Assembly: GCA_965223545.1 (NCBI GenBank)
Contig: OZ245006.1
Location: 7,328,001 to 7,392,000, forward strand
DNA length: 64,000 nt
Direction of reading: 5' to 3'
Source: Planctomycetota bacterium
Lineage (GTDB): Bacteria > Planctomycetota > UBA1135 > UBA2386
How positions within the stretch are numbered: position 1 is the first letter of the stretch; the number at the start of each line of letters is the position of its first letter. Position numbers and translations under genes: made by a program. The notes beneath the pieces were generated by a model. That model was not told where the DNA came from and made no database searches. It saw only the letters and a list, made by a program, of their open reading frames with translations. This document shows, piece by piece, positions 3,429-50,785 of this stretch.

Positions 3429-4306
3429 GTGCTCGCCTCTTGTGCCTTGTCGTTCAGGGTTTCGATGCCCGATGCGCGCAGCTGCAGTTCGACATCGCAG
3501 GTGTCCGGCTGGTAGACGACGTGCTCGACAAGGAGGCGAAGTAGCCGCTCCTTCTCGCGCGGGAACAGCTCGTTCCACGTCTCGGTGAACGAGCCGAGCG
3601 CGCTGCGCACGGCCGCCTCGTCGGCGCCGTCGTCGAGGTCACGGAGCGACAGGCCGACGCGTTCGAGTTCGCCGTTGGTCTCGACGAGTTGCCTGTCGAG
3701 ATCGGAGATCCGCTCGCCAACTCGTGCTGTTGAGTTCTCCGCGGCGGTCGCGAGCAGCTCTCGGCGTGCAGCAGAGAGTTGGTCGCGCTGCTTCGTCAGC
3801 CGGTCGTGCCCCTGCGTTAGGCGCCGTCGTTCTTCGCGTGCTGCCTCCTGCATCGCCTCGGCCGTAGCGGCACGAGGTTCTCGTCCCGGCCTATCCCGCG
3901 CAGCCGGTCGGCCACGAACTGCTCGAACTGTCCGGCGGGCACGCGAGCATCTGGGCAGGCGTCTCGCCCTTCCGTGTGCGCCTTGTTGCAGACGTAGTAG
4001 CGGTAGCGTTTGGACGTCTTGTCCTTGCGGCTGCGCTTCGTGCTGAAGGTGTGAATCATTGGCGAGCCGCAGCGGCCGCATGCCACGAGACCTCGGAGGA
4101 TTGCGCCGGTCTTGTTCCTCGTGCTTGCGCCACCGCTGGTTCGATTCGCGGCTTGCCAGAGGGCCTCGTCGACGATCGGGTCGTGTTGCCCGTCGACCAC
4201 GTCCTCGCCGCAGCGCAGTTGCCCCCGGTAGATCACGTTGGTCAGCAGCGCGTGCAGCGTCGCTTTCGAGAATGGTCTGCCGCCGGACGTGCGATCGTCC
4301 TTGGTC
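3425..4306 (-). pseudogene. Large serine recombinase remnant (recombinase domain, zinc ribbon, coiled coil; catalytic N-terminus lost, frameshifted)
   Basis: GGRPFSKATLHALLTNVIYRGQ...GQHDPIVDEALW, LRGLVACGRCG and YRYYVC...C lie in one frame. The coiled coil and WNELFPREKERLLRLLVEHV lie in another (shift near 3870). Confidence 0.85.
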
Positions 4307-4387
4307 GAAGAGATCTTCGTAGCGTGTCGCCAGTTCGGCCGCGGAGAGCGTTTCGAGTTCCTGGACTTGTTGTGTGATGGAGGTCAC
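4307..4387 (-). pseudogene. 5' fragment of a DUF2924-like gene fused by deletion to the recombinase remnant
   Basis: GGAGG then GTG 4387. (V)TSITQQVQELETLSAAELATRYEDLF resembles DUF2924 N-termini and switches abruptly to recombinase sequence. Confidence 0.6.
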
Positions 4388-4542
4388 GAGCGACCTCCAC
4401 ATGGAGCCTCAGCTTGGGGCGGCTCTGCAAGGCGATTCTCAGAGCAAAGCCAGCGCAGGCAACCGATCGCGAGGATCCTGGCTAGTTCGGCGGTCCGTTC
4501 CTTGGCGGTCATCGTCGATGGGTCACGGTCGGTGCGAATCAT
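4384..4542 (-). CDS. Small hypothetical protein (52 aa) of the recombinase module
   Basis: MIRTDRDPSTMTAKERTAELARILAIGCLRWLCSENRLAEPPQAEAPCGGRS; 4-nt start/stop overlaps with both neighbours. Confidence 0.55.
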   Translation of the reverse strand: MIRTDRDPSTMTAKERTAELARILAIGCLRWLCSENRLAEPPQAEAPCGGRS

Positions 4543-7953: not shown

Positions 7954-8580
7954 ATGCCTGAGAAGAACACAGAAGTGGGCGATGTCCGAACCGCCGCGCC
8001 CGGCGACGCCGACGCCGCCACGGAGATCGAGACCGACACGGCGACGGTCGAAATCGAGACCAAGGTGACCGGTCGCAACGGCATTTTGCGCATGTGCCGC
8101 AACTGCGCAGTCCACGCGCTGGCGCAATTCATCGGCTACAGCGGCGCGAACATCGTCACGGATCACCTGTCGCCGGAGCCCGCGCCAAGCCAGACCACGC
8201 CCGACGCGCCGTTCGACACACAGGACGAGCAGAACGAACGCGTCGCGCAGTATGAGCACGACGACGCCGAGCCGGCCGTGGTCGCCGCCACAAATGAGGG
8301 GGAGACGGGCGAGGAACCCGGCGCCGCCGCCGAGCGCGAACAAGAGCGCGAAGATGAGCTCGAGAGCGGGCTGGAGGACGAGCTGGACCGTGGTCCGACG
8401 GAAGTGCAAGAGGTCCGCTACCTCGACGACGATGACAAGGAGGTCGATCCCGACCTGATCATCCAGGTGAATCGACGCACCCGGCAGCAGGTGCGGATGG
8501 CGCGGGTGGCCGACGACTCCCCGGTCGATCCCGCCCACCCGGTGTGGGTGCCCCGACCCGTCGCCGAGTCCGGCTGGTAG
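7954..8580 (+). CDS. Acidic hypothetical protein with CxxC (208 aa)
   Basis: GC3-biased codons; D/E-rich; MCRNC motif. Confidence 0.55.
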   Translation: MPEKNTEVGDVRTAAPGDADAATEIETDTATVEIETKVTGRNGILRMCRNCAVHALAQFIGYSGANIVTDHLSPEPAPSQTTPDAPFDTQDEQNERVAQYEHDDAEPAVVAATNEGETGEEPGAAAEREQEREDELESGLEDELDRGPTEVQEVRYLDDDDKEVDPDLIIQVNRRTRQQVRMARVADDSPVDPAHPVWVPRPVAESGW

Positions 8581-8942
8581 CCGGTCCAGCCGAGGTCGCC
8601 GAGCGATGTTGAATCGTCACTCTGCCTTGGCCGATCACGGCACCGCCTGTAGCTCGAGGCGGTGCGCGAGGGCTACGCCAAGGGGAAACCGGTGTTGTTC
8701 GAGCTTCGCCTCGACCTCGACTTCATCCTCCCGCGTGGTGCGATAGCGCCGGTGCTGGGGGGGCGCCGGGGTGGTCTGCGATCGCCGGCGAGTCCTTGCG
8801 ACGACCCACGAGCGGGCCGCAAGAAAGACGAAATTTGCGTCCGCGTCGACACGCCTGGGCACTCTGTTCCGGCGAAGAGCTGCCGCCCTATCAGCGACCG
8901 GGGCGGCTTGTAGCCTTGCCGACCTCGTTCTTTACTGTTTCG

Positions 8943-27486: not shown

Positions 27487-28785
27487 ATGCATGTGCTCCC
27501 GTGGCAGGACTACGACTTCACCCGCCTCGCCACCGGCAGGTTGTTCGCCTACGTGGGTGCGGGCCTGTCGCAAGCGGCGGGGCTCGTGGGTTGGAACGAC
27601 CTCGCCCGCCGCGTCGCGACGTTCCGTCGCGATTACGACGGTGCGGCCGACGACGCGGAGGCACTACCTGACGATGAGGCCGCCAACCAGCGCGTGCTAC
27701 GGGCGTTCGTCGAACAGGTGGGCCACGACGGCCACCCAATCCTCTCGTACCCCTCGACGGACCTGCGGACCTTCGGACGCACGGTTCTTCTCAACCTACT
27801 GCTGCGTCGCCGGTCACCCTCTGGCCGCCGCGCGGCCGAGGAGTTCGATGCCGGCGACCTGGACCTGCACCACTCGCTGTGGCGGGCGCGCGTTCAGGGC
27901 GTCTTCACCACCAACTACGATATGCTGCTTGAGGAGGCATTCCATCTGACGCCGCTCGCGGAGCGCGACGCGGCTTACGGGCGCCGCGCGCTCCGCACCT
28001 ATCGCTACGACGCGCGCTTCCTCCGCTTCGTGCTGAGCACGCCACGGTTCGTGCTGAAGCTGCATGGAGACGTCAACGACCTGGGCACGATGCTGTTCGA
28101 CCCCTCGGCCGCTTGGGCTCCCGGGGGCGCCCTGCACGGTGCCCGCGGCCGCGACCTCTGCCGGGCCCTCGACAGTGCCCGAAACGCTGGACACATTGTC
28201 TATGTCGGCTGTGGCGCCCGTGATCGCACGTTCCGCTCGCTGCACGCGACCCCCGCTCCGACGACGCCGCCATTCGAGCGCGTCGCCCTCGTGCCGCTCT
28301 GTGAGGCGGGACGCTTGACCGACGTGCACGGTTTGCAGGTCCTCACCTATGGTGGCGCCGAACAACCACGAGCGGAGTACGCTCGCGAGCAGCTGCGCGG
28401 TTTCCTCGGAGCGCTGGAACAGGCCACCGAAACAAGGCCGGAGAGCCCCGCGCCGGAAGCGGTGAACATCTGGACCCAGCTCAGCCAGACCACGATGCGG
28501 CGGTGGTCGGTCAGCAACCCGTGGGACCTCCGCGACCTCTCCGTCCGAGCGGACGCCTGGCACCGCGTCGAACCGCCTGAACCTGGCCACTATCTCTGGC
28601 GACGCCGCGATGGCGACCGCAGTCCCTTCCTATCCAAGGTCGCCGCCGTCGAATGCCACGAGAGGTACCTGTGTGCGGTACTCGAGGGCCGCGAGGTGCA
28701 GTGGGACTGGACGACGCAGCGAGGTGCGGACGAACCGCTGCGAGCCTACGAATGGATCGGCCCCCTCGACGCTTCGTGGGGCTGA
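27487..28785 (+). CDS. SIR2-like (SIR2_2) domain protein
   Basis: YVGAGLS, W..L, TTNYDMLLEEA, LKLHGD, YVGCGARD. Confidence 0.85.
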   Translation: MHVLPWQDYDFTRLATGRLFAYVGAGLSQAAGLVGWNDLARRVATFRRDYDGAADDAEALPDDEAANQRVLRAFVEQVGHDGHPILSYPSTDLRTFGRTVLLNLLLRRRSPSGRRAAEEFDAGDLDLHHSLWRARVQGVFTTNYDMLLEEAFHLTPLAERDAAYGRRALRTYRYDARFLRFVLSTPRFVLKLHGDVNDLGTMLFDPSAAWAPGGALHGARGRDLCRALDSARNAGHIVYVGCGARDRTFRSLHATPAPTTPPFERVALVPLCEAGRLTDVHGLQVLTYGGAEQPRAEYAREQLRGFLGALEQATETRPESPAPEAVNIWTQLSQTTMRRWSVSNPWDLRDLSVRADAWHRVEPPEPGHYLWRRRDGDRSPFLSKVAAVECHERYLCAVLEGREVQWDWTTQRGADEPLRAYEWIGPLDASWG

Positions 28786-28975: not shown

Positions 28976-31627
28976 TCACGGGAGCGCGACTTCCAAAGCG
29001 AGCGTCTCCCCCGCCTTCAGCTCGATGGCGAGCCGTTGCGTCTCGATGTTCGGCCCGCGTACGACGAGGCTGTGCAAACCGGTTGGAAGTAGGCGAAAGC
29101 TGACGCTTTGGCCCTCTCGCTGCCCGGTGTCGACGGTGATGCCCGCTGCGTCGACGACCTGGACTTCGAGGTCCTCGAGCTGTGTGTGGTTTGCCGGCTG
29201 GATGGCCACGACCAGGCGGGCCCCATAGCGCAGGCGTGCATCGGGAACCTGGCGGACTTCGCCGGCGACGAGGGAGAGTTCGCCGAGCTGCGCATCCAGG
29301 AAGCCAGCGAGCGATCCTCTGATCTCGTACCGACCTGCGGGCAGCGGTCCGACTTCGAAGCGACCTCTCGCGTCGGTCTCGGGCGGCGGGACCATCGGAT
29401 ACGGGTGGTTGGCCAACTGCAGGCTGACTTTGGCCGCAGAGTTGCCATCAGGCATGAGCACCCGTCCCGTGATCCTGGCGCTCGGCAGCGCTTCGCGGGG
29501 GACCTCGATGGTCAGCTCCGCCGCGCCGGGAAGCACGTGCTGCACTGTCCGTACTGCCGGCCCGACGAAGCTCGGCGGGTACACCTCGAGGGTGTACTCC
29601 CGAGCTTCGCAGTTGTTGAGGACGAACGCGCCGCCGCGGTCGGCGCGGGCGAAGGCACCGGCTGTGCCTCTCTCCGCGATCACCCAGTTCTCCAGCGGTT
29701 GGCCACGATGGTCCACGAGCTCGCCCTCGATGCGCAGTCCGGCATCGAGCCTGAAGTCGACCTCGTGTGGTCTGCCGCTAGTCAGCAGGATCGTGGGCTC
29801 CATGCTGCCGTGCTGCGGGCTGTGGATCGAGAGAGTCAGCTCTCCCGCGGGCAGGTCGTCGAAGCGATACCGACCGTCGGCGGTTGTCATGGCGACTCCC
29901 GTCTCGGCGTAATTCGCGGGGCGCAACACGTACGCGTCCTGAACGGGCTCTCCGTCTCGATTCGTGATGCGCCCGAAGAGTGCGGCTCCGCTTTGCAGTT
30001 GGACAGAGACGTGGGTCGCACCTCCCGGTGGGCAGACCGCCGTTCCCCGCCACCGGGAGTACCCTCGGGCGTAGACATACAGGGCAGTGGGACCGGACCG
30101 GAGGGACGTCGCCCTGAACTCCCCCTGCGCGTCGGTCGCGACGTGCACCGTCGGTGGGGCGTGGAAGGTGCCGCCACCGGGCAGTACCCGCCGACGCTCC
30201 CGGCTACCCCTGCCGCCGATCGTCACCCATGCGTTGGCGACCGGGTTCCCCCGCGGGTCGGAGACGCGACCGGTCATGGCTGCGGGCAAACCCGGCAGAG
30301 TCAGGCGAAGGATCACGTCGCCGCGCGAGTCGGGCACGAACTCGTCGAGCAGAGCGAAGTCCGAGGTCCCGTGGTTGCGAGTTCGGGCGCCAATCAGGTT
30401 GCCGCGACTCGGCGAGTCGACGCGGAAGCTGCCGTCGCCCGCGGTGACGGTCAGCGGGTAGGCCGACTGCGGCGGACTCAACGACGCGACGCAGAGGATC
30501 TCGGCTCCGGCCACGGGCAGGTCGTCCCGGTCGACGACGATGCCACGGATCGACAACCCGCGGGGGATCGCGAGCTCGACGGTCGTTCGCTCTCCGGCGC
30601 GGGCCTCTACCGCGTCTCCGTCTTGCCGGAAGGTGCGCACGTCGAACCTGCCGGGGTCGAGGGCGTCGAATAGTGCTTTGCCCGCCGCATCGGTTGGAGT
30701 GAGCGTCGCGGGCGCTGCAGGGTACCACGCCCCCGTGCCGGTCGCGCGGAGCCTGGTCACCGACACGCCGACGTGACCGGCTGGCTCTTGCGTTCCTTGC
30801 CAGACCACGCGCACGAGAAGACTGGCCACCTCGACTGCCGGAACCGGAGGGGCGGCCGGCACCAGAATGTGGCGGTCACCGACAGGGCTCGGTACGTCCG
30901 AAACGGGCGCATCTGCCGCAATCGGGTTCGCTGGGGAGCGTCCGGGCTCGGGCGGGATCGCGGCGGTAGGACCACTTCGGTACCAGACTCCGAGCAAACC
31001 AGCGAGCACGAGACCTGTCACGAGCAGGGCTTTGGTCTTCACCTTCATCAGGACGAACCCCCACAACGTCGGAGTGTCGACTTTCCAGAGGGCTGGCGAG
31101 GCGATCGGCGGCAGCCACCCTCGCCTTCCGTCGTACGAGTGGTCCAGCTTGGCCCGCACCAGGGCGAGGCCTCGCTTGAGCCGGGTGCGGACGGTCTCGA
31201 CCGGGACGCCGGTCCGGGCCGCGATTGCCCGACACGAGAGCCCCTTCATGAACCTCGCGAGCAGCGTGGAGCGATAGGGCTCGTGGAGATCCAGCACGGC
31301 CCGACCGGCTTCAAACTGGAGCTCTGCTTCGGCGACGACGTCCCCGGCGGCGCGCGCATGCTGTGCGGCGGGGGCGGCGTCCTCCGCCCGCTGCCGTCGT
31401 GTTTCGCGGCGACAAAAGCCGATGGCGATGTTTCGAGCAACCCGCGCCAACCACGAGCGGCGGGGGACGCCGCGTGGAGGCGGGTTGGAGAGTTCGGCCA
31501 AGACGACCTCTTGACCGAGATCCTCCGCCAGGTCGGCATCTCGGATGAGCGTGCGCGCAAACCCTCGCAGCCACTCCAGATCCAGCAAGGTCGAGTCGAG
31601 CGCCTGGCGGTCGGTGGGGTGGCTCAT
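28976..31627 (-). CDS. ECF sigma-70 factor fused to a TM helix and carboxypeptidase-regulatory-like repeats
   Basis: WLRGFARTLIRDADLAEDLGQE; LHEPYRSTLLARFMKGLSCRAIAARTGVPVETVRTRLKRG; TM helix; repeated G.V.D..G.PV.GA units. Confidence 0.92.
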   Translation of the reverse strand: MSHPTDRQALDSTLLDLEWLRGFARTLIRDADLAEDLGQEVVLAELSNPPPRGVPRRSWLARVARNIAIGFCRRETRRQRAEDAAPAAQHARAAGDVVAEAELQFEAGRAVLDLHEPYRSTLLARFMKGLSCRAIAARTGVPVETVRTRLKRGLALVRAKLDHSYDGRRGWLPPIASPALWKVDTPTLWGFVLMKVKTKALLVTGLVLAGLLGVWYRSGPTAAIPPEPGRSPANPIAADAPVSDVPSPVGDRHILVPAAPPVPAVEVASLLVRVVWQGTQEPAGHVGVSVTRLRATGTGAWYPAAPATLTPTDAAGKALFDALDPGRFDVRTFRQDGDAVEARAGERTTVELAIPRGLSIRGIVVDRDDLPVAGAEILCVASLSPPQSAYPLTVTAGDGSFRVDSPSRGNLIGARTRNHGTSDFALLDEFVPDSRGDVILRLTLPGLPAAMTGRVSDPRGNPVANAWVTIGGRGSRERRRVLPGGGTFHAPPTVHVATDAQGEFRATSLRSGPTALYVYARGYSRWRGTAVCPPGGATHVSVQLQSGAALFGRITNRDGEPVQDAYVLRPANYAETGVAMTTADGRYRFDDLPAGELTLSIHSPQHGSMEPTILLTSGRPHEVDFRLDAGLRIEGELVDHRGQPLENWVIAERGTAGAFARADRGGAFVLNNCEAREYTLEVYPPSFVGPAVRTVQHVLPGAAELTIEVPREALPSARITGRVLMPDGNSAAKVSLQLANHPYPMVPPPETDARGRFEVGPLPAGRYEIRGSLAGFLDAQLGELSLVAGEVRQVPDARLRYGARLVVAIQPANHTQLEDLEVQVVDAAGITVDTGQREGQSVSFRLLPTGLHSLVVRGPNIETQRLAIELKAGETLALEVALP

Positions 31628-32017: not shown

Positions 32018-33250
32018 CTAGAACACTGTCTCGAGCCACAGGGCGATCGGCAGCTCGAGCAGCCACCAGTGCTGCGACGAGCCGAAGTGGTCGACGTGTG
32101 CGAACTGCTCGATCGACTGGAAGGTCACGTCCGCCGAGCTCAGCTGGGCGGGCAGCTCGTCCATGACGGAGCCGAAGCCGAGTCCGGCTTTGATGACGAG
32201 GACCTTGCCGGTGAAGGCCGCCAGGTTGTCGCCGTACTGCGGGACCACGCCGGCGAGGCCGCCGTACAGGTCGCGCAGGATGCCGATGGAGATCGAGTCG
32301 TTGAAGACGGCGACGTTGGCGAGCAAGCGCTCCTCGTCCGAGTAGACGAGCTCACCGGCCGGAACGTCGCCGACGGCGGAGATGAAGCCGGGGCGGGGTG
32401 ACGGGGCGAGTGGGTTGGGTACTGACATCACCGCGACGAACGCCTGCATGTTCGTGAGGCCGGGCGGGAAGCCGGGAACCGGCAGCGCGAAGGGATCGTT
32501 GGGCGCGATCGTCGCGAGCTGGCCGACCTGTTTGACCAGGGGCAACGACTGGTCCTCGAAGGCGATCCCCGCCGCGAGCATCGCATCGAGCTGCTGGTAG
32601 AAGCCCAATGCATGGGTTTGCACCGCGACGTCGGTCGTCGTCACCGCGCCCTCCCACGCGAGCACGCCGGCGTAGTCGTTGGGGGAGGCATCCACCACGG
32701 CGAGCCCGGTGGTCGCGCCCATCGACAGGCCGCCGACGACCGGCAGGCAGCCCGGCTGGGCCGCGGCGATCTGTGTCCGAATGTAGGCGACGTCGTCGAG
32801 CACGGTCTGCAGCGTCCAGCCGAGGGCCGCTGAGCAGTCGACGCCACCGAAGCACGCACCGGCAGCCACGTTGGCGCTGCGCGGTGAGTAGCCCCACACG
32901 TCGTAGCCGATGCGGGCGAAGAACCCGGCGAACGACCAGCTTGGGTCGCCGCTCTCGTGCACGAGGTACTGTTCGAAACGGTTGCCGAGCGGCGGCAGCA
33001 GTAGGAGCACGCCCCGCGTGCCGGCCCCGGCGCGCTGGACGCGGTGCATGGTGAAGCGGTTGAGGGGATTGGCGCCCTCTTGAACCACGGTGTCCGTCAG
33101 TTGGAGGCTGCCGAACGCCAGCGGCTGTAGCTGCGTGTTCTGGCTGACGACTGCGTACTGGGCCGTGCCCGCGTCGGCGAGCGTGAAGCACGACAGGAGG
33201 CCGGAGAGCAGCCAGGGGAAGGCGCGAGTGCGCGAGTGCGAACGGAACAT
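32018..33250 (-). CDS. Secreted alpha/beta hydrolase
   Basis: GAGG RBS then ATG 33250; signal peptide; GYDVWGYSPR, GLSMG nucleophile elbow, C-terminal HVDH. Confidence 0.8.
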   Translation of the reverse strand: MFRSHSRTRAFPWLLSGLLSCFTLADAGTAQYAVVSQNTQLQPLAFGSLQLTDTVVQEGANPLNRFTMHRVQRAGAGTRGVLLLLPPLGNRFEQYLVHESGDPSWSFAGFFARIGYDVWGYSPRSANVAAGACFGGVDCSAALGWTLQTVLDDVAYIRTQIAAAQPGCLPVVGGLSMGATTGLAVVDASPNDYAGVLAWEGAVTTTDVAVQTHALGFYQQLDAMLAAGIAFEDQSLPLVKQVGQLATIAPNDPFALPVPGFPPGLTNMQAFVAVMSVPNPLAPSPRPGFISAVGDVPAGELVYSDEERLLANVAVFNDSISIGILRDLYGGLAGVVPQYGDNLAAFTGKVLVIKAGLGFGSVMDELPAQLSSADVTFQSIEQFAHVDHFGSSQHWWLLELPIALWLETVF

Positions 33251-33439
33251 GGGTCCTCTCGGATCAAGGAGTCTGTGGTCGGGATGTCGCGAGCTGCGAT
33301 CCCAGTAGTTCGTCCACCCGCGGTCAGACGCCGCTGTCACGCGCGGTTCGAGGAATTTTGGCGACCCGAGATTCGTGCGGCATGTGGCGGATGCGTCCGC
33401 ACTGGTGCGTTGTTCGTGTGTTTCCCAAACGAGACTGTC

Positions 33440-34165
33440 ATGCAAACGCAGCAACGGGTCTCTGCATCGTTGCAAGCCAACGCCACGCAGCGGTTGCGCC
33501 ACGACGCGCCCACCTCTGGGCGACGACCGAGCACCGGCGCGGCGCCTCCGCAATTGGCACCAGAGTCGGTGGATCCGGAGGAACGTCGCGCCACCGAGCG
33601 CTACCTGGAGCGGCAGTTCGCCGTGCTGCGCCGGCGGCACAGCGCACAGAACGCGATCCTGCTGCGTGTCGTCGCCGACCACTGTGCGCACGCCGTGGCT
33701 CTGGCCAAGCGCGGGGCGTTGGCCGATGCCCGCACCCAACTGACGACCCTCGATGGGTTGGCGCCGTGCCACGATGTGGAACTCCGGGCCGTGCATGGCA
33801 TCGTGGCACTGCCGGCCTGGGCCCTCGTCGAATGGCGGGAGCAACAGCACGCCCGCGCGCAAGGGTTGCTGCGCCAAGCGATCGAGCTCTGTGGTTGGCT
33901 CGCGGGTGATCGCGGCCACGATTATCTGACGGGCAAACGGATCCACCTCGCCGCCAATACGGGTCGCGTTCTGGTCTCACAGCGACAGTTCGGGGAGGCG
34001 CGCGCATGCGTGCGCGCGCTGCGTGCGGTGTTGGCCGGGGATCGCAGCGCCTGGTGCTTCGCATCGCCGGAGAGCCTGGTCCTTCCGCTGGTAACGGGGC
34101 AGGCGACGGGGCTCGCCCGACAGCTGGACCGAGTCGCGGCGCTTTGTCGGGAGGGCGGGCGATGA
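33440..34165 (+). CDS. Helical (TPR-like) hypothetical protein coupled to the lanthipeptide synthetase
   Basis: Amphipathic A/L-rich helices; ATGA overlap with the synthetase. Start uncertain. Confidence 0.65.
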   Translation: MQTQQRVSASLQANATQRLRHDAPTSGRRPSTGAAPPQLAPESVDPEERRATERYLERQFAVLRRRHSAQNAILLRVVADHCAHAVALAKRGALADARTQLTTLDGLAPCHDVELRAVHGIVALPAWALVEWREQQHARAQGLLRQAIELCGWLAGDRGHDYLTGKRIHLAANTGRVLVSQRQFGEARACVRALRAVLAGDRSAWCFASPESLVLPLVTGQATGLARQLDRVAALCREGGR

Positions 34166-36912
34166 CCGGCGCCGACCCCGTACGGGCGGCGGCGCGCCGA
34201 CTCGCGGCTGAGGACTTCCTGCGCGGCTGGACGGTGCGTGCGCAACCCGCGTCTTCGGCTCTTCACGCCGGCGCCGCCGGCGCCGACTTCTGGACCAGCT
34301 ACAGCGCGCCGAACGCTCGGGAAGCGAGCAGCGGATTCAAGATCCACGTATCTGCCAGCATCGCGTCGGCAGCCGACGTCCTGTTGCGCGCCGCGCCCGC
34401 GTTCGGACGCATGGGCGTGCCTTTCAAGCACGCCAGCTCACTGGACCGCCTGGCGACGTTGTCCAGCGGCGCGGGTGGCGCCACCCAGGTCGGCAAGTTC
34501 TTGACCGCGTATCCGCCGGACCCGGAGACCGCGCGCCGTCTCGCCGACCGACTCCACGAGCTGACGCAGGGGTTGCCCGGTCCGCGCATCGCGTCGGAGC
34601 AGCAGTTGTGTCCCGGCAGTCTGGTGCACTACCGCTATGGTGCATTCGTCGAGCAGTGGTTGCAGCTACCGACCGGGCGGATCGCGCCGGCGCGGCTCGG
34701 GCCGCGCGGGCTCGAGCCCGACGAGCGCGGCGCTGGCCCCGGCGATGGCGCGCCGCCGAGTCCGTTCGGCGCTCCGACGGATGGCGTCGATGGCGAGACG
34801 CGCACCCTGCTGGCGGAACGCTACGTCCGCATGCGCCCCTTGCACGAGAGTCCCAAGGGCAACACTTGGCTGGGGTTCGATCAAGACTCCGCGCCTGCCG
34901 AGGACCCGGAACGCCGCGCGATGGTCGTGATCAAGGAGGCGTTCGCGTTCGTGATGGAGGCGAGCGATGGCCTCGACGCGGTGCGCCGCTTGGAGCGGGA
35001 GGCGCTGCGCATCCGCGCGCTCCAGGACAGCGGGCTGACGCCTGTGTTCGTCGACTACTGGCGTGAAGTGGACCGGGCGTTCTTGGTCTATCGACTGGTC
35101 GAGGGTCCGACTCTGGCCTCGATCATCAACTCCCTGCGCGATGAGGGACTTTCGCCACCCGCGACTCTGTTGCGCGATTGGGCCCAGCGCCTGGCGGACG
35201 CCGTCGCCGAGGTCCACGGCCGCGGCTTCGTGCTCGGCGACATCAAGCCGTCGAACATCGTGTTTGCCGATGGGGGGTTTCGTTTCATCGACCTGGAGCT
35301 CGCCGGCACACCGACCACGGCGCCGTGCGGCGGGATGGGGACACCCGGCTACTGCTCCCCGGAGCAGGCCGATCCCGACGTGGGCCGCAGCTTCCAGCAA
35401 GACGTCTACAGCATCGGCGCGACCTTGTTGGCGGCGTCGACTCTCACTGATGCATCGTCGCTGCCGGACCTCTCGGCGGTCGCCGCCGCCGAGTCGCGCC
35501 GCCACGGTGCGCCGATCCACGCGTTGATTCGGCAATGCCTGGCGCGTGACCCCGGGAGCCGGCCGGAGTCTGCCGTCGATCTCGCTGCCCGCTGTCGCGC
35601 GCTCGATGGAGTGCCGGCCGCGGTGCGCGATACCGTCGTTGACGCCCAACCGGGTGTCGACTTCGGTCAGCTGGCCGCGGACGTCGGTGACCTCCTTCTC
35701 CACGCCGCGCGGAGCGACGGGAGCTACACGTGGTGGGAGTCCGGTCACGCGACGGTGGGGCTGCGCGCGGTGCGCGATTTGTACGCAGGCTCGTGTGGGA
35801 CCGCCTTGTTCCTGTGGGAGCTCTACGAGCAGGGCGGCGACGAGCGCTACTTGGACGCGGCCCGCCGCTGCGGTGAGTGGCTGTGGCGCACCGATCCCGA
35901 GGTGCCTCGACAAGTGGAGATGCCGGGCCTGTACTTCGGCGAGGCCGGTCCCGGGCTGCTGTACCTGCGCCTTCACGAGGCGACTGACGAGCCCGTGTGG
36001 CTGACCCGCGCTCGGCGCGCGAGCGCACGCGTGGCGGCCATGCCGCACCACTCGCCGGACCTGATGACCGGTGCCGCCGGCAGCGGCCTGTTCCACCTGG
36101 CGCTGTGGAGTACTGCGGGTGATACGGATGCCCTGGACCGCGCGCGGTGGGACGCTGCTTGGCTGCTCGACCGGCGGGTCGGCGGGCGTCCCTCGTGGGC
36201 GATCCCGCCCGAGCACGAGACCTTGAGCGACACCGAGTACTTGGGCTTCGCGCACGGTTCCGCCGGGATCGGCCATTTCCTCGCCGAGTTGTGTGCGGCA
36301 GCGCCGGACCCGGCGTTGCGGCAAGCGTGCGCGGAGACCGCAGATTGGCTGCTCGAGCACGCGCAGCCGTGCCTCCCCGATCAACGCGGGTTGCGGTGGC
36401 CGAACTCGCCTGGCGACAGCGCTGGAATCGGCGTCTACTGGTGTCACGGCGCCGCTGGAGTGGCGCGCTTCCTGGCGCACGCCGGTGTGGTCCTGAACGA
36501 CGCACGGTATCTCGACGCCGCCATTGGTGCCGCACGCAGCATCGCCGCGGCGCGCTGGAGCGGCACCACGCAGTGTCACGGTTTGGCTGGCAACATCGAT
36601 GTGTTGGTCGACGTTTGGCAGTGTGTAGGCGGCCGGTGGCTGGACGTTGCGCGGAATCTCGGCCAGGACCTCTTGCTCTATCGGACCGAGCGCGGCTGGC
36701 CGTCCGAGTCGTCCCTCGTCTACAGCCCGGACCTGGTCGTCGGTCAGGCCGGCGTCGGTGCCGCGTTTGCGCGCTTGGCGGCGCCTCACCGACAACACGT
36801 CGTGACGGCAAGAGTGTCCCGCGGTTGCGGACCGGCTGAAGGTCAGTCGGTTGCGCCACCGCTCACCGCAAGAGAGTTCGCTCTCCAAAGGAGTAGCCAT
36901 GCCAAACTGTGA
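34162..36912 (+). CDS. lanL: Class IV lanthipeptide synthetase (lyase-kinase-LanC cyclase)
   Basis: Lyase: GFKIHVS, FKH, GKFLTAYP, YRYG. Kinase: IKEA, DIKPSN, IDLE, GTPGY. Cyclase: GFAHG, with Zn ligands in WCHG and QCHG. Confidence 0.92.
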   Translation: MTGADPVRAAARRLAAEDFLRGWTVRAQPASSALHAGAAGADFWTSYSAPNAREASSGFKIHVSASIASAADVLLRAAPAFGRMGVPFKHASSLDRLATLSSGAGGATQVGKFLTAYPPDPETARRLADRLHELTQGLPGPRIASEQQLCPGSLVHYRYGAFVEQWLQLPTGRIAPARLGPRGLEPDERGAGPGDGAPPSPFGAPTDGVDGETRTLLAERYVRMRPLHESPKGNTWLGFDQDSAPAEDPERRAMVVIKEAFAFVMEASDGLDAVRRLEREALRIRALQDSGLTPVFVDYWREVDRAFLVYRLVEGPTLASIINSLRDEGLSPPATLLRDWAQRLADAVAEVHGRGFVLGDIKPSNIVFADGGFRFIDLELAGTPTTAPCGGMGTPGYCSPEQADPDVGRSFQQDVYSIGATLLAASTLTDASSLPDLSAVAAAESRRHGAPIHALIRQCLARDPGSRPESAVDLAARCRALDGVPAAVRDTVVDAQPGVDFGQLAADVGDLLLHAARSDGSYTWWESGHATVGLRAVRDLYAGSCGTALFLWELYEQGGDERYLDAARRCGEWLWRTDPEVPRQVEMPGLYFGEAGPGLLYLRLHEATDEPVWLTRARRASARVAAMPHHSPDLMTGAAGSGLFHLALWSTAGDTDALDRARWDAAWLLDRRVGGRPSWAIPPEHETLSDTEYLGFAHGSAGIGHFLAELCAAAPDPALRQACAETADWLLEHAQPCLPDQRGLRWPNSPGDSAGIGVYWCHGAAGVARFLAHAGVVLNDARYLDAAIGAARSIAAARWSGTTQCHGLAGNIDVLVDVWQCVGGRWLDVARNLGQDLLLYRTERGWPSESSLVYSPDLVVGQAGVGAAFARLAAPHRQHVVTARVSRGCGPAEGQSVAPPLTAREFALQRSSHAKL

Positions 36913-37297
36913 TCCGGAAAAGCGTCCGGAAGATGATCTAGACCTCGTCGCGCGCGTCATGGAGACCGTGCACCGCCAAGTCGGTAGCTACATGACGTCG
37001 CTGCAACAGCTGCGCACCGTGCGTCGCGAGATCGAAGTCAATCCCAACCTTCGCAAACGCGTGACCTCGGGATCGAGGGAGATGGTCAAGGTGCTGGTGG
37101 AGCGTGGTGTGCCGGAGCCGTTGGCCGCCGGCATGTCCGCCGAAGACTGGCGCGACCTCGATCTCGCCGGCAGCCTGGGTCTGTGGACCTGGGACTGCTG
37201 CTGCACCGGGTGTTGTCTGACGTGCATCTGCACGCAGAACACCTCGGCCGTCGCCAATCCCGGCGAAAGCGTGATCAATCCTCAGATCGGGCGCTAG
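36899..37297 (+). CDS. Putative lanthipeptide precursor (132 aa; long leader, Cys-rich core)
   Basis: AAGGAG RBS at 36888-36893; overlaps the synthetase stop; core WTWDCCCTGCCLTCICTQNTS. Confidence 0.85.
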   Translation: MPNCDPEKRPEDDLDLVARVMETVHRQVGSYMTSLQQLRTVRREIEVNPNLRKRVTSGSREMVKVLVERGVPEPLAAGMSAEDWRDLDLAGSLGLWTWDCCCTGCCLTCICTQNTSAVANPGESVINPQIGR

Positions 37298-37300
37298 CGC

Positions 37301-37347
37301 CCGGCGGCGGTGGTGCGTGCCAGCCAGCTTGTGGCGCGCACCGCCGG
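37301..37347 (+). terminator. GC-rich hairpin after the precursor gene (terminator or mRNA stabiliser)
   Basis: GGTGCGTGCCA...TGGCGCGCACC stem, extendable by CCGGCGG/CCGCCGG; no U-tract. Confidence 0.35.
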
Positions 37348-37456
37348 CCCTGTTGCGTGATCTCGGGCTCACCCCTCGAGAAGCGGCGCTCTTCTGCCAC
37401 AATGGAGGTGTCGGGCCGCGGGCACGACGAGTCGCCCGGCGCCGCGAGGACGATGC

Positions 37457-40015
37457 ATGACGGAATCAGGGACGTGGCGCAAGAGCGTCATCGGCTTGGC
37501 GGCGACGCTTTTTGTCACCGTGGGTTGGGTTCTCGTGCGCCCGGAGGGCCCGGCTCCGGCCCGTGCACCAGCATCACCGGAAACGAACGATTCCGCGCCG
37601 GCTCGACCAGAGCGCCGTTCTGGTCCAGGCGCGAAGCGCTCGTGGCGGGGGCGTGCGCTGGAGGCTCGCCGCTGGCTGCGGGTCGTCGATGCGACCTCGG
37701 GTCGGCCGGTGCCTGGTGCCACCGTGCGCTTCGGAGTGCTGGGCGCGCTCGACGAGCTCGATCCAGACCGGTGGCGGGCGGCGCAAGAGCTGCGTCGGCG
37801 TGACGTCGAGGAGTTCTTGCGCGTTCACGGCGCATCCTCGACGGCCGACCCCGACGGGTGGCTCGTGTCTACTCGGGAGCCGGGGTGGCCGCGCACGGCC
37901 CGCCTGGGATCGCGCTACGGGGAAGCGGATCCCGACGGCTCCGGCGACATCGCGATCGCGCCGGACCGGTCGTTGCGCGTGCGCGTGCTCGATGTCGAGG
38001 GAGCTCCGGTCTCGGGGATCGACGTCGCGCTCGGTATCGATCGGTCTTCGGATGTTCCTCCCGGAGGGTTGAACGCGTCGGTGGCGGTGACAAACGAGGC
38101 GGGCGAGGCAAGCCTGCCCCACGTCGGGCTGCTCGCCGCGCGGGCGCGCGGACACGGCGTTGGCACTCTGTTGCTGGCGCCGGGGATCGCTGGCTCGGCC
38201 AGCGTGGGGCTCGGGCTGGTCATTCGCCCGCCGGCTTGGCCATCGGAGCCGGTCGTCCTGCGGCTGCCCGCCTGCCGCACGGTGATCGTGACGCTCCGCG
38301 GCCCGGATGGCACACGCTTCCCGATGTCCGGCCGCGGGGACGAGTTCGTCTCCCTGCGCGTCGAAACGACACCGCAGGGGTACGACACGGCCGACCTGGT
38401 CGGCGGAGTCGCGCGGTTTGCTCGAGTGCCCCTCGGCGTCGGGCTCACCCTGTCCGCACACGTCGCGGGGTTCGAGGCCGAGCGCCGGTTGCCGCCGTCG
38501 ACGGGCCGGGCCATGGCGGAGTACGTCGAGCTGCAGTTGCGATCTTCCGCCCCGGTCTACGCGGTCCGCGCGGTGGGGGCCGACCGTCAGCCCTTGGCGG
38601 ATCGGTTGCTCTCCGTCGCGGTGCCGGGGTTCGTGGCGAGTCTCCGGCGGAGGACCGACGCCGCGGGGAGGCTGCTTGTTCCCCTGCCGCGTGACGAGGA
38701 CAATGACTTCGAGGACGCAGTGCTGCGACTGACGACGCTGGCGTTGCGGCACGACACCAATGGCCGGGAACTCGCGCCGGAGCTCGGTACCGAGCGGGCG
38801 GCGGTGCGATTGCCCCCGGCAGCGCATGGCTCGGTCACGGAACTCGGCGACGTTGCCCTCCTACCGCTTCCGCTGCTCGCCTCCGGCGTGATCCACGCCG
38901 CGCCATCCGCGCTGGCGGACGACTGGTCGCGCCACGCGATCGCGACGGGGATCGCGGTCGATGAGCTCCGCCTCACCGAGCAGGGCCGTTCATGGCATCG
39001 GCGGGAAGACGTGGTCGTGCGCGTCGCGCCAACCGGCGCGTTCGCGGTGCACGGAAGCCGAGGCCGCGCCGCACTCCGGCTGAGAGACGTTCGCCGGCGA
39101 GTCGCTCCGTTCGCTCCGGTACCGTTTGTTCCCGGCGCCGCCGGACTCGAGTTGCAGCTCCCGACGCCCGGCAGCCTCGAGATCGACGTGGTCCCCGCCG
39201 CGCGCGACGAACTCGCGCTCCAGCTCGAGCCGCTCGATCGTTGTTGGCCGGAGCACGATTCCCGCGACCTGCGTCGAGTGCGCCCATCGTCCCGCGTCCG
39301 GCGTCCCGAGCGGCCACACCGCGACGTGCACGTGCTGCCGTGGCTGTGGCCTGGGTCGTATCGAGTCAGCGCCCATCTGCGCGGGCTCGCCGCGCCCTTG
39401 ACGATTCTGGACCGCGTCGAGATCCGCGCCGGAGAGCGCACCCGCCCGTGGCTTTCGTCGCCGTTGGATCCGGCCGCGGTCGCGCGGCGGGTGGACGTGC
39501 AGCTCGCCGACGCGAGTCGCCGTTCCTCGTCCCGGGCAACCCTCCGGTTGTGGGTGCGGGATCCGACACCCCGCGCGATCTCGTTGGCGGCAGGGAATCG
39601 GCAATGCTGGCTGCCCTTCACCGTCGATGAGGGCGTGCTCGACGTCCGCGGCCGCTGCCTCACGATCTGGCGGCCCGAGGCCCAACCCGTCGCCGTGCCT
39701 TCGCTGTTCGAGGTCGAACTGCGTCTTCCCGCGGACGTGACCAGCGCGCGGCTCGAGGTTGTTCGCGACCATCCGTTGTATTCGTGGCGGGATGTTCCGC
39801 AGCTCCGCACAGCGTTACGGCTCGACGTGGTGCGCGGCACCCAGAGAGTCCGATGCCGCGCACCAGGCCCTTGGGTGTTGACTTTGGCCCGCGGTGGCGG
39901 GCAACCGACATCCGTCGACGTCGTTCTGGCGCCCGCACACGCCGGGCGAGTTCTTGATCTGACGAGTACCGCTCCGACGCTTCGAGTATCATCGGGGCAG
40001 GTAGGAAGATCATGA
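37457..40015 (+). CDS. Membrane-anchored carboxypeptidase-regulatory-like domain protein (no sigma domain)
   Basis: N-terminal TM helix; LRVVDATSGRPVPGA, VRVLDVEGAPVSG, TDAAGR. Confidence 0.8.
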   Translation: MTESGTWRKSVIGLAATLFVTVGWVLVRPEGPAPARAPASPETNDSAPARPERRSGPGAKRSWRGRALEARRWLRVVDATSGRPVPGATVRFGVLGALDELDPDRWRAAQELRRRDVEEFLRVHGASSTADPDGWLVSTREPGWPRTARLGSRYGEADPDGSGDIAIAPDRSLRVRVLDVEGAPVSGIDVALGIDRSSDVPPGGLNASVAVTNEAGEASLPHVGLLAARARGHGVGTLLLAPGIAGSASVGLGLVIRPPAWPSEPVVLRLPACRTVIVTLRGPDGTRFPMSGRGDEFVSLRVETTPQGYDTADLVGGVARFARVPLGVGLTLSAHVAGFEAERRLPPSTGRAMAEYVELQLRSSAPVYAVRAVGADRQPLADRLLSVAVPGFVASLRRRTDAAGRLLVPLPRDEDNDFEDAVLRLTTLALRHDTNGRELAPELGTERAAVRLPPAAHGSVTELGDVALLPLPLLASGVIHAAPSALADDWSRHAIATGIAVDELRLTEQGRSWHRREDVVVRVAPTGAFAVHGSRGRAALRLRDVRRRVAPFAPVPFVPGAAGLELQLPTPGSLEIDVVPAARDELALQLEPLDRCWPEHDSRDLRRVRPSSRVRRPERPHRDVHVLPWLWPGSYRVSAHLRGLAAPLTILDRVEIRAGERTRPWLSSPLDPAAVARRVDVQLADASRRSSSRATLRLWVRDPTPRAISLAAGNRQCWLPFTVDEGVLDVRGRCLTIWRPEAQPVAVPSLFEVELRLPADVTSARLEVVRDHPLYSWRDVPQLRTALRLDVVRGTQRVRCRAPGPWVLTLARGGGQPTSVDVVLAPAHAGRVLDLTSTAPTLRVSSGQVGRS

Positions 40016-42576
40016 ATCCGAGTCGAAACTGGAGTGCGAGCAGCCTCGGCGGCCTCGCGGTTCTCTTGGTTCTCGTGCATGCCCGCGCGCAAGATCCGTT
40101 CGCGCAGCTCAGCACCCGGCCCTTGCCCTTTGGCCAGCCTGGCATCGGAGCGACGGGAGACATCGACGGCGACGGCGACCTCGATTTGCTCCTCCCTCTG
40201 CCGCGCGGTCAGGACCGGCTGTTGCTCAACGACGGCGACGGTGTCTTCACCGAAGTCACCGCCACGCACATGCCGCCCGACACGCGTGGGACGCGTTCGG
40301 CGACCTTCGTCGACGTCGATGGCGACGGCGACCTCGATCTGGCGCTGGCCGGCGATACCACGGGGTTGTTCGGCGAACAGAACCGGCTGCTGCTCAACGA
40401 CGGTGCGGGCAGCTTCACCGACGTCACCTCAGCCCAGCTGCCCGCCGACAGCGATGCGACGCCACAAATCGTCGCGTTCGACGTCGACGCCGACGGCGAC
40501 CCGGACTTGCTGTGCTGCAGCAGCGAGACCGGCATCAGTACCCCCGGCCAGAACCGGCTGTACCTCAACGACGGCGCCGGGTCGTTCACCGACGCGACCG
40601 CGACCCACTTACCCGCGGAGCCCAGCGACTGCCGTCACGCGAAGGTTGGCGACCTCGACGGTGACGGCGACCTCGATTTCGTCACCGCGACGGGGGAGTA
40701 CAACGAGCCCTTGCGCGTCCACATCAACGACGGCACGGGTCGATTCGTCGTATCTCGTGCGGGCGCACTGCCAGCGCTCACGTCTCTCGGTGCTCGCTCG
40801 TTGTTCCTGGCCGATATCGAGAGCGACGGTGACCTCGACATTCTGACGCGCGCGGGTCGGTTGACGGTGCTGGTCAATGACGGAACGGCGCGGTTTCGGG
40901 ACGAGACCGCGGCTCGGTTGCCCAGCGATGGGTCGCTCTACGTTCAGGGCGACTTCGACCGCGACGGGGACGTCGATTTCACCGCGTTCGCATACCCGTC
41001 GACCGGGGCTTTCTCGTTCCTCGAGAACGACGGTAACGGCTTCTTTCAGTTCACTGGCGCGCTTCCGACCGGCGGCGAAGTCGCGGCCGACTTCGATGGT
41101 GATGCCGATCTGGACCTACTCTGGGCGAGCTCCTTCGACATCCTCCTGAACGACGGGAGTGGCAGCTTCTTCGACCGCCGGCAGGCCGAGCGCCGGGGGC
41201 CGGATTTCGTCGGTTGGCCACGGCGGGCGGCCTTGGCGGACGTGGATGGCGATGGCGACCGTGATGCCTTCTTGACGAGTCAGACCCTCGACAGCGATCG
41301 GCTTCTGCTGAACGACGGCCGCGGCGTGTTCACCGACGCGCCGCAGCCCCTGCCGCAGAATGGTCGTTCGCACACTGTCGCGCTCGGTGATGTCGACGGG
41401 GATGGCGACGTCGATGCGGCGATTGCCGCCAATGGCGTGACCCGGCTCCTGCTGGGCGATGGTGCGGGTGGGTTTACGGAAGTCACCGCCACGCACATGC
41501 CGCCGTTGTCGACGAACACCCAGGATCTGGAGCTGGCCGACTTCGATGGGGACGGTGACCTCGACTTGGTGGAGGCCAACTGGTTCTCCTCCAGCGCGCT
41601 TCTGCTGAACGACGGCAGTGGTCGGTTCAGCCTGGGGGCCAACCTGTCGAGCACCTCCCGCCGCACACGAGCTGTGGCTTCGGTCGACATCGACGGAGAT
41701 GGCGACTTGGATTTGGTCTTCGGCAACGACTGGGATCCTGCGACCTTGTTTCGCAACGACGGTCCCGCGGGCTTCGTCGACGTAACCACAACCCAGCTCC
41801 CTGGGGCCGCGGCGAACGCGTTCGATCTCGTCGCCGCAGATGTGGATGGCGACGGTGATTCCGATCTCGTCTTCGTGGTGTTTGCCTACCAGGCGCAGAG
41901 CTCGACGCTGTTCGTCAACGACGGTGCCGGGACGTTTGTCGATGCTACGGCGGGGCGGTTGCCGGCGACGATGTCGGGTTGGCACGTGCACGCCCTGGAT
42001 TACGACGGCGACGGCGACCTCGACTTGGTGTCCGGCGGCTCCGATGGGCTGTCCGTACTCGAGAACGACGGCCAGGGCCGCTTCACAACAGCGCAGTCGC
42101 TGGCCGTGCTCACCTGGCAGAGTTTCGCGCCCGAGCTCCACCCGGTGGCCGCTGGCGACGTCGACGACGATGGCGATGCCGACCTGCTGCTCGCGATCAC
42201 GGACGGCCCCATCGACGTGGCGACCAACCTGCGCCGTCAGCTGCACTTCGCGCGGTTGGTTCGCCCGGGTCGCGTTGCCCAGCTCGACATCTACGCGGTT
42301 GGCCGGCCAGCGGTTTCGGCGATGGCGCTCCCGTTCCTGTCGGCCGGTGCCGGCCGACTGCCGCTCGCGGGCCTCGGCGTCCTCGGTCTCAACCCGATCC
42401 AGCTCTTGCCCCTGTCCGCGGCCCAGATTCCCGCGGCAAACCACGTGGGCTCGGCGGTGTTCGGTGTGCCAGCGACCTCGAGCTTGATCGGCGCGGAGGT
42501 GTTTGCCCAGGCCGTGCTGGTCGAGGGCAGTCGCATGTGGCTGACCAACACGCAAGGCCAGCGCGTGATCCAGTAG
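40012..42576 (+). CDS. FG-GAP/VCBS repeat protein with conserved C-terminal domain
   Basis: Signal peptide; many D-x-DGDGD-x-D and LNDG.G.F repeats. Confidence 0.93.
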   Translation: MNPSRNWSASSLGGLAVLLVLVHARAQDPFAQLSTRPLPFGQPGIGATGDIDGDGDLDLLLPLPRGQDRLLLNDGDGVFTEVTATHMPPDTRGTRSATFVDVDGDGDLDLALAGDTTGLFGEQNRLLLNDGAGSFTDVTSAQLPADSDATPQIVAFDVDADGDPDLLCCSSETGISTPGQNRLYLNDGAGSFTDATATHLPAEPSDCRHAKVGDLDGDGDLDFVTATGEYNEPLRVHINDGTGRFVVSRAGALPALTSLGARSLFLADIESDGDLDILTRAGRLTVLVNDGTARFRDETAARLPSDGSLYVQGDFDRDGDVDFTAFAYPSTGAFSFLENDGNGFFQFTGALPTGGEVAADFDGDADLDLLWASSFDILLNDGSGSFFDRRQAERRGPDFVGWPRRAALADVDGDGDRDAFLTSQTLDSDRLLLNDGRGVFTDAPQPLPQNGRSHTVALGDVDGDGDVDAAIAANGVTRLLLGDGAGGFTEVTATHMPPLSTNTQDLELADFDGDGDLDLVEANWFSSSALLLNDGSGRFSLGANLSSTSRRTRAVASVDIDGDGDLDLVFGNDWDPATLFRNDGPAGFVDVTTTQLPGAAANAFDLVAADVDGDGDSDLVFVVFAYQAQSSTLFVNDGAGTFVDATAGRLPATMSGWHVHALDYDGDGDLDLVSGGSDGLSVLENDGQGRFTTAQSLAVLTWQSFAPELHPVAAGDVDDDGDADLLLAITDGPIDVATNLRRQLHFARLVRPGRVAQLDIYAVGRPAVSAMALPFLSAGAGRLPLAGLGVLGLNPIQLLPLSAAQIPAANHVGSAVFGVPATSSLIGAEVFAQAVLVEGSRMWLTNTQGQRVIQ

Positions 42577-50446: not shown

Positions 50447-50785
50447 GCTTGGGGGCGGTTCCTGTACTCGATCATACGGGTTCTGGTTCCGCACTGCCCC
50501 TTGTGGCAAAGCAGCAGGCCGCCGGAAGCGCTCCAGACTCAACAGCTCTCGCGCTGCGATTGCTCGGTGACTGGCAAGGCGGAGCCATCGACGGACGTCA
50601 GCGGGTGGGACTAGGCCTTCAAACCGCTCCGGCAGAATCGGCATCTGAGTTTGGTTGCGGCCGTGGCCGCGCTGAGCGCTGTAAGTCCGAGATGCGGACG
50701 TCGAGATCGTAGTCCTCGCCGTCGGTTACGGGCACGGCGAGCGCATGACTAGCATCACCGCCTGATGGGCCGCTGGGCCCGGCGA

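Follow-up and report, generated by a model that had tools for sequence, protein, structure and literature searches.

A conserved three-gene cassette with a class IV-type lanthionine synthetase, a TPR-type helical protein, and a long-leader precursor in a planctomycetal genome

We analyzed a 64,000-nucleotide stretch of a Planctomycetota bacterium genome (contig OZ245006.1; the whole stretch is called the window here) and found three linked plus-strand genes that form a real, conserved cassette. They encode a TPR-like helical protein (positions 33440 to 34165; 241 amino acids [aa] from the ATG), a class IV-type lanthionine synthetase, LanL, that belongs to a distinct clade (34162 to 36912; 916 aa), and a putative precursor peptide (36899 to 37297; 132 aa). 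The cassette probably represents a lineage of its own among class IV lanthipeptide systems, with a folded leader, a TPR partner, and a product bearing about 3 to 6 (methyl)lanthionine rings. At the level of sequence, this reading is carried by the enzyme architecture, the catalytic residues, the linkage kept among loci, and a leader that is likewise conserved and is predicted to fold. A first-pass annotation of the window had described three overlapping genes for a helical protein, a LanL, and a 132-aa peptide, all of which were found as plus-strand open reading frames (ORFs) where it had placed them. Its assignment to a class IV-type cassette with its own precursor family was borne out by homologues and linkage; the cassette ends at 37297 rather than at 37347.

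The Cys pattern of the precursor is, by itself, frequent in off-frames of this 70% GC genome. The precursor is unlikely to be a chance ORF, because the whole protein aligns with 14 homologues (45 to 63% identity) that have the same neighbors. Searching 5.8 billion proteins produced 100 candidates, of which 14, not counting the query, were homologues; a profile search across 1.84 billion representatives added 21 hits with an E value of ≤0.001. Viral contigs gave 46 pattern stretches and 0 confirmed precursor relatives, and 50,697 phage records held no precursor relative. Three loci came from a genome scan, 12 from a metagenome scan, and one (L019) from a plasmid search. L003 and L015 proved on inspection to be chance hits in unrelated frames and were dropped before linkage was counted; with L019 added, the linkage set comprised 14 other precursor loci. 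A related LanL adjoined the precursor in 13 of the 14, and in L013 the contig ends inside the precursor. Precursor homologues standing apart from Lan enzymes, the outcome that the first-pass annotation had named as speaking against it, were not seen at any locus where the comparison could be run.

Gene order varied around a fixed core. The precursor follows LanL in the window, L001, L004 to L007, and L009 and precedes the TPR gene in L002, L008, L010 to L012, L014, and L019, and the TPR-LanL junction is kept in both orders. In each of the 10 loci able to show it, the TPR gene is the immediate upstream neighbor of lanL, and in L001, from a Thermoanaerobaculia metagenome-assembled genome (MAG), the TPR domain is fused in frame to LanL, the only fusion among 119 LanL hits. 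Hosts comprise Acidobacteriota and Actinomycetota MAGs, a Rhodococcus plasmid, and metagenomes; further single-gene carriers are Streptomyces stelliscabiei for LanL and Bradyrhizobium sp. B117 for the precursor (WP_342736293.1). Among 72,556 plasmids, the precursor and the TPR protein each matched one record, pRB98 of Rhodococcus oxybenzonivorans S2-17 (L019), which was also the best plasmid match for LanL (44% versus ≤32% for 13 others). The precursor was found in 0/400 other genomes of the phylum, and the cassette is therefore rare and probably horizontally mobile. In the window, the TPR gene and lanL overlap by 4 nucleotides (ATGA) and lanL and the precursor gene by 14, and a Shine-Dalgarno-like AAAGGAG read from the sequence (36887 to 36893, plus strand) precedes the precursor gene within the 3′ end of lanL. 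The TPR gene may start further downstream: its homologues begin to align near residue 40, and a GTG at 33569 offers an alternative start. Contigs of 3/3 public runs (one study, perhaps the source) covered positions 32800 to 38000 with zero differences. The GC content of the cassette region (68 to 71%) is the same as that of its flanks, in a genome of ~70% GC, and no match to a sigma-70-type promoter or a terminator was found at the cassette.

The LanL protein matched RamC_N (lyase; PF25816; E value of 1.6e-35), Pkinase (PF00069; 1.4e-12), and LANC_like (PF05147; 1.2e-43). It scored 527.2 bits against the NCBIfam class IV LanL model NF038150, below the curated cut-off of 650, and 305 bits against the class III LanKC model; judged by sequence, it is classed here with class IV-type enzymes, in a clade apart and outside that equivalog. 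Among solved structures, its closest relative is PDB 8CAR (E value of 7.6e-49), which we take to be CuvL. Residue roles were transferred, by matching spacing, from the lyase of VenL (PMC8341899) and from SgbL, whose cyclase residues are D642, H710, C769, C814, and H815 (PMC9292228). All three predicted domains lie on the plus strand. The phospho-Thr/Ser lyase domain (34282 to 34731; residues 41 to 190) retains K60, H62, K89, K112, and R158, and W50 and D137 of VenL correspond to F59 and E146. The Ser/Thr kinase domain (34801 to 35601; about residues 214 to 480, with approximate bounds) carries K258, E280, D360, K362, N365, and D377, and the Zn-dependent LanC-like cyclase domain (35776 to 36798; residues 539 to 879) carries D633, H698, C761, C805, and H806.

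The kinase residues were invariant in 40/40 clade sequences. The cyclase Zn ligands and catalytic Asp/His, which mark class IV as against class III, are present in the window LanL and were kept in 39 to 40 of the 40, in agreement with the intact kinase and Zn-ligand motifs noted earlier. The lyase, which had also been called intact, is so with two exceptions. Equivalents of VenL K51, H53, K80, K103, and R149 were kept at identical spacing in every clade sequence covering them, but Trp50 is Phe and Asp137 is Glu in the window LanL. Across the clade, the Asp137 position held Glu in 34/39 sequences and Asp in 5/39, and Trp50 was found in 0/35 clade hits showing the motif versus 79/80 other LanL hits. 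Trp50 is conserved in class III and class IV lyases as an activity residue, not a class-defining one, and VenL W50D lacked lyase activity (PMC8341899); because of that result, its loss would either reshape the lyase site or be compensated.

By sequence, the LanLs of these cassettes form their own clade. Among the best 120 of 8,000 scored candidates, the top 39 gave 570 to 1,029 bits at 41 to 56% identity, and the next gave 405 bits at 34%. Subsets of them formed one group in two trees, with 21 of 48 rows in one and 14 of 30 rows in the other (SH-aLRT of 100 and a stem of 1.1, in a quick, midpoint-rooted tree without a class III outgroup). A second LanC-like gene of the genome (L018; G000:C1:2292449-2293498) was rejected as a lanthipeptide enzyme, being stand-alone with no lanthipeptide context. 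Its product has a likely signal peptide, and the gene is flanked by sugar-modification genes on one side and two genes for ABC transporters on the other; a lanthipeptide precursor was not seen there.

The AlphaFold model of the helical protein is all-helical (pLDDT of 92.9), and its top structural matches were TPR proteins (Z scores of 15.5, 13.5, and 13.1), matches that are generic for the fold. Its ESM Atlas neighbors were TPR proteins or unnamed, and Pfam TPR matches were weak: TPR_14 was found in 8/14 family members, and the window protein itself fell below the cut-off. The model and the fold search indicate TPR-type stacked helical hairpins. Sequence searches found 4 homologues among 4,790 candidates, and Foldseek found no match at an E value of 0.001 for the TPR or precursor models; re-examining its 10 chains yielded nothing further. 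Its gene position and the L001 fusion tie the TPR protein to the lyase end of LanL. We infer that it is a partner of the enzyme, and the loss of Trp50 may be linked to that partner. The first-pass annotation had recorded a helical protein but neither its TPR-like, conserved nature and fusion to the enzyme nor the missing lyase Trp.

The leader of the precursor has a predicted helical fold, as had been proposed for a leader of about 95 aa. The AlphaFold model had a mean pLDDT of 80.4, with values of ~89 to 96 over residues 11 to 80 and lower values in the core and tail. A family-specific N-terminal helix (36926 to 36991, plus strand; residues 10 to 31) contains L14, T23, Q27, and Y31, which are invariant in close homologues (31/31 for T23, Q27, and Y31); E82, further on, was conserved in 32/32. 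By eye only, this helix resembles the start of venezuelin-type leaders. It lies outside the alignment to Nif11 leaders, which covers the following, remotely Nif11-like helical part (36992 to 37138, plus strand; residues 32 to 80).

The suggestion that the leader resembles NHLP or Nif11 leaders was borne out as a remote likeness, for Nif11 more than for NHLP. Among 37 family members, the Nif11 models PF07862 and TIGR03798 matched 2 and 3 (best E values of 0.005 and 0.026), with no match to the window protein, and the NHLP model TIGR03793 matched 1 (0.099); none of the 37 passed a Nif11 or NHLP cut-off. Reference alignments for hhalign were drawn from same-phylum family searches (17/17 NHLP-like loci, 5 of them over the cut-off, and 26/30 Nif11 loci, four having been excluded before the test). 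The leader matched Nif11 over 49 columns at a probability of 84% with all rows and 81% with close rows. Against NHLP, the probability was 67% with distant rows and 19% with close rows only, and the observed score of 22.1 compared with a block-shuffle maximum of 21.7. The reversed leader and the TPR protein gave ≤1%, and NHLP versus Nif11 gave 95%. In each of four runs, 0/60 shuffles (60 column, 60 block) reached the observed score, narrowly so for NHLP.

Hallmarks of the Nif11 and NHLP families are a Gly-Gly cleavage motif at which conservation stops, a hypervariable core, and a linked C39 transporter (PMC2887384), and this set was not found here. Gly-Gly occurs in 18/32 precursors and is absent from that of the window, and the single C39 transporter of the genome lies 4.5 Mb from the cassette. 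Just upstream of that C39 peptidase-ABC transporter is a 63-aa Gly-Gly-type precursor-like ORF with a PQPEPP-containing tail (L022:1210-1401; G000:C1 ~2871944-2872135), a separate RiPP/bacteriocin locus. A wide fold search with the leader (48,161 chains) ranked LigA (Z score of 4.6), DesB (4.2), and SonA (4.0; 52/52 residues) first to third, all weak at <5, and the proteusin precursor 8TB1 reached 3.2. As far as remote sequence likeness indicates, the leader may function in the manner of folded Nif11-type leaders, although it falls outside that family.

The predicted core (37184 to 37246, plus strand; residues 96 to 116, the leader/core boundary being inferred) holds 7 Cys, 5 Thr, and 1 Ser. 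All seven Cys fall within 12 residues (100 to 111), as first described, and the tail of about 20 aa in that description corresponds to 21 residues beyond the last Cys. The variable C-terminal tail proper (37247 to 37294, plus strand; residues 117 to 132) differs in length and sequence among relatives, and close homologues extend 6 to 40 residues beyond the last Cys. Conservation was counted over 32 close sequences, excluding five distant rows: T97, C100, and C101 were kept in 32/32, C102 and T108 in 31/32, and C105 and C106 in 31/31. The Cys excess over Thr that had been remarked on is present but small, with 7 Cys versus 6 Thr/Ser in residues 97 to 116, and the argument built on it is weaker because six Thr/Ser flank the seven Cys. 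Family-wide, a 24-residue window of the core holds 5 to 8 Cys and 3 to 8 Thr/Ser; the excess is small among close relatives and more evident only in distant homologues. Five such homologues retain the leader and the Cys cluster, and in 4/5 no more than six residues follow the last Cys. Among the five, P0038 carries a Tat signal, then a leader with greater likeness to NHLP, and then the Cys cluster of the family, which suggests an exported form; two others, P0037 and P0031, had no plasmid match. Candidate relatives from other searches were set aside. In a PDB sequence hit to nitrile hydratase alpha (E value of 0.012), the chain has a duplicated segment, neither stretch of which was significant, and the Cys cluster differs in spacing from the CxxCSC site of that enzyme. 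Cinnamycin-type precursors, the first ESM Atlas hit (score of 0.81), were regarded as a lead only and not taken up.

In the mechanism that we propose, the 95-residue leader would fold into a long N-terminal helix and a Nif11-like bundle and dock on the synthetase. The TPR protein would help to hold or position the precursor on LanL, possibly making up for the lost lyase Trp. The kinase would then phosphorylate Thr97, Thr103, and Thr108, and probably Thr112, Thr115, and Ser116, and the lyase would convert the phosphorylated residues to dehydro residues. Addition of Cys thiols by the Zn cyclase would give about 3 to 6 overlapping (methyl)lanthionine rings in 20 residues, with one or two Cys perhaps left free. 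In some rings, the Cys would be N-terminal to its acceptor; this applies to rings at T112 and T115, because both follow all Cys. Unlinked general peptidases would finally trim the leader and tail. Class III and IV clusters usually lack a peptidase, and general peptidases have been proposed to remove their leaders (PMC8341899); the genome studied here has 5 M1 peptidase matches.

Several observations weigh against this class IV lanthipeptide reading. At 527 bits, LanL falls under the NCBIfam LanL cut-off of 650, and Trp50 is absent although its exchange in VenL abolished lyase activity. A tightly folded leader is ill matched to the proteolysis-sensitive leaders proposed for class IV (PMC8341899). 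None of the 5 widely covered loci has a conserved transporter or protease. The five distant precursor homologues (~5 Cys and 3 to 4 Thr/Ser) are known as proteins alone, so that unlinked or otherwise linked homologues may exist. Finally, because L004/L009 and L011/L014 are near-duplicates and L009 is truncated, the independent cases number about 10 to 11. L009 itself (581 to 1597) is probably a chimeric contig: it matches L004 except that the leader runs, after about residue 80, into histidine-kinase-like sequence, and the core is missing.

The main rival, an unlikely one, is that the leader is never removed. The product would then be a small thioether-cross-linked protein with a functional helical domain, whose Cys cluster, partly free, binds metal or senses redox state or electrophiles inside the cell. 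Over 7 loci, leader and enzyme were conserved to a like degree (mean local identity of 0.50 versus 0.47 for LanL). Such conservation can reflect recognition by the enzyme, and folded, enzyme-binding leaders are known among NHLP, Nif11, and borosin-binding-domain precursors; that leader identity correlates with LanL identity across these loci (rho of 0.45; 205/5,040 permutations as high) counts for the main reading. The precursor was single-copy in the three searched genomes that carry it, its core is fixed rather than hypervariable, Gly-Gly is not invariant, and neither an exporter nor a protease is linked. Distant homologues stop just past the Cys cluster and have more Cys than Thr, and a copper-binding lanthipeptide exists (PMC10206099). 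In many close homologues, however, Ser/Thr residues equal or outnumber Cys, so that few Cys need stay free.

Three further readings, which are not mutually exclusive, each seem quite improbable. The first supposes a weak or selective lyase: few Thr would be eliminated, or the substrate would stay phosphorylated, with most Cys in disulfides or metal sites in a mixed topology such as the first-pass annotation had suggested. It draws on the loss of Trp50 in all 35 clade members with the motif and the change of Asp137 to Glu in 34/39, on a minimal conserved motif of 5 Cys and 3 Thr, and on the adjacent pairs C102-T103 and T108-C109, whose members presumably cannot bridge each other. The invariance of the other lyase, kinase, and cyclase residues in ~40 divergent enzymes argues instead for full activity. 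No oxidase or exporter is linked, and disulfides are unlikely to form in the cytoplasm without export.

The second of these readings is an intracellular anti-phage module, whatever its chemistry. It draws on the patchy spread of the cassette (0/400 other genomes of the phylum). On pRB98 the cassette lies among IS elements; in L006 it is near a tRNA gene. No exporter is present, and transporter-poor class I clusters, the lanthiphages, act intracellularly without ABC transporters (bioRxiv 2024.06.26.600839). A SIR2_2 gene lies ~4.7 kb upstream in the window, and PADLOC candidate PDC-S02 lies downstream in L019. Yet such defense-like neighbors occur in only 2/5 widely covered loci, with no background count, and the SIR2 protein matches ThsA weakly. 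PADLOC matched neither the precursor nor the TPR protein and matched LanL only via its generic kinase domain, and lanthiphages are marked by class I enzymes (LanB/LanC) and enrichment near defense genes, whereas the enzyme here is of class IV type.

The third takes the TPR protein not as a partner of the enzyme but as the receptor of the mature peptide, or as an immunity factor against it, like RNPP-type sensors. It appeals to the binding of peptides by TPR grooves and to PlcR-PapR among the top structural matches (Z score of 13.1). Against it, several of these generic TPR matches lie within ~1 Z unit of PlcR, and no helix-turn-helix family was among the Pfam matches of the TPR protein. The protein is also fused to LanL in L001 and, whichever gene order is considered, keeps its place beside LanL rather than beside the precursor.

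In a bolder, likewise unlikely reading, LanL would be a two-component class IV synthetase in which an obligatory TPR subunit completes the remodeled lyase (Trp50 lost) and recognizes a folded, Nif11-derived leader. The product would be an intact small intracellular protein with a methyllanthionine knot and free Cys, acting in metal or redox sensing or in defense. If true, lanthionine synthetases would extend from peptide natural products to conserved protein modification.

Several features near the cassettes are noted for completeness. No transporter, protease, or tailoring gene recurred beside the cassette in the 5 widely covered loci; an S8 peptidase upstream in L019, a POT transporter and S8 gene in L005, and a BTAD regulator in L006 were rejected as components, being not conserved across loci. 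In L006, a tRNA-Arg gene (3341 to 3416) and the BTAD (SARP-type) regulator gene (3647 to 4501) immediately precede the cassette in the same orientation; they might mark an integration site and control the pathway, respectively, and other loci did not show them. In L019, the S8 peptidase is paired with an alpha/beta hydrolase (8262 to 11360), PDC-S02 is a DUF1016/PDDEXK nuclease (17228 to 18325), and IS5 and IS30 elements are found around them. Two upstream ORFs in L011 (3 to 1021) had no Pfam or PADLOC match at an E value of 0.001; by eye they resemble what we take to be a caspase-type domain and a SLOG-type protein. In the window, the SIR2_2 protein (27487 to 28785, plus strand; E value of 5e-8; weak ThsA similarity) is stand-alone and a possible defense gene. 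Other flanking genes (28976 to 31627 and 45165 to 50644, minus strand; 37457 to 40015 and 40012 to 42576, plus strand) encode a protein that joins an ECF sigma factor to carboxypeptidase-regulatory-like repeats, along with several proteins carrying FG-GAP repeats, a gene style known from Planctomycetota. A DNA search of 20 relatives gave, among the matches listed, mostly repeat-gene matches and was not used for the cassette.

The open-access literature, searched by title or abstract and with most subscription journals and bioRxiv supplements outside the search, yielded no description of this cassette. The chemistry itself is known, that of class IV; what is apparently undescribed is a variant that stands out in three ways: its leader is the size of a protein and predicted to fold, it has a probable TPR partner, and its lyase site is altered. 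Few class IV lanthipeptides have been characterized, and most share one ring pattern (PMC8341899). Class IV chemistry would be broadened by a conserved family in which 20 residues could carry as many as six rings. How modifying enzymes engage folded leaders is under active study, with LanM, halogenases, and a hydroxylase as examples (PMC12537861; bioRxiv 2026.10.04.756588), and the cassette offers a compact three-gene kinase-lyase test case with a natural fusion and a cultured carrier (R. oxybenzonivorans S2-17, pRB98). It also points to a blind spot. A RODEO survey discarded ORFs of >120 aa (bioRxiv 2020.03.13.990614; PMC7268733), whereas precursors of this family span 118 to 149 aa and 26/29 full-length ones counted exceed 120 aa. 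Because LanL falls under the NCBI cut-off, such clusters are annotated as kinases and hypothetical proteins.

Among known systems, the borosin-binding domain of SonA and LigA-type bundles share with the leader only the weak likeness of the top three fold-search ranks (all Z scores of <5). The SonA leader is structurally akin to the capping domains of dioxygenases of the LigA and DesB group (PMC8429565); no sequence similarity to the present leader was shown, and borosin chemistry is N-methylation. NHLP/proteusin leaders (TIGR03793) show a weak likeness over one short stretch (about residues 38 to 76). They differ in the 19% probability obtained with close homologues, in the Gly-Gly rule that is not followed here, and in the beta-hairpin that distinguishes NHLPs from Nif11 leaders (bioRxiv 2026.10.04.756588) and is absent from our model. 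Nif11-like leaders (PF07862, TIGR03798) share a remote profile likeness over residues 32 to 80, a helical bundle, and a long leader before a Cys/Thr-rich C terminus. Here, the leader is below the family cut-off, has an extra conserved N-terminal helix of ~30 residues, and lacks an invariant Gly-Gly; the core is fixed, the gene is single-copy, and no C39 transporter is linked. The partner is LanL, whereas Nif11-like leaders have been described alongside LanM, TOMM, or hydroxylase enzymes. In the RODEO survey, class II families are the ones associated with NHLP and Nif11 leaders (bioRxiv 2020.03.13.990614; PMC7268733), and folded leaders have been studied with LanM (PMC12537861), with a hydroxylase (bioRxiv 2026.10.04.756588), and, for an NHLP precursor, with a LanM/class III hybrid (PMC10676384).

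Class IV systems (VenL, SgbL, SflL; NF038150; PDB 8CAR) share the lyase-kinase-cyclase order, the Cys/Cys/His Zn ligands, the catalytic Asp/His, most lyase residues at exact VenL spacing, the lack of a dedicated protease, and a Thr/Cys-rich core. The part of the RODEO precursor table that was checked held 0 matches to the core motifs, and the class IV entries covered in its list are mostly ~35 to 60 aa long, versus 118 to 149 aa here. According to a 2025 review (PMC12328550), Actinobacteria and Firmicutes were the only known sources of class IV; hosts here include non-actinobacteria. The cassette further departs from known class IV systems in its separate clade below the cut-off, its loss of Trp50, its conserved TPR partner, and a core motif unrelated to the venezuelin type.

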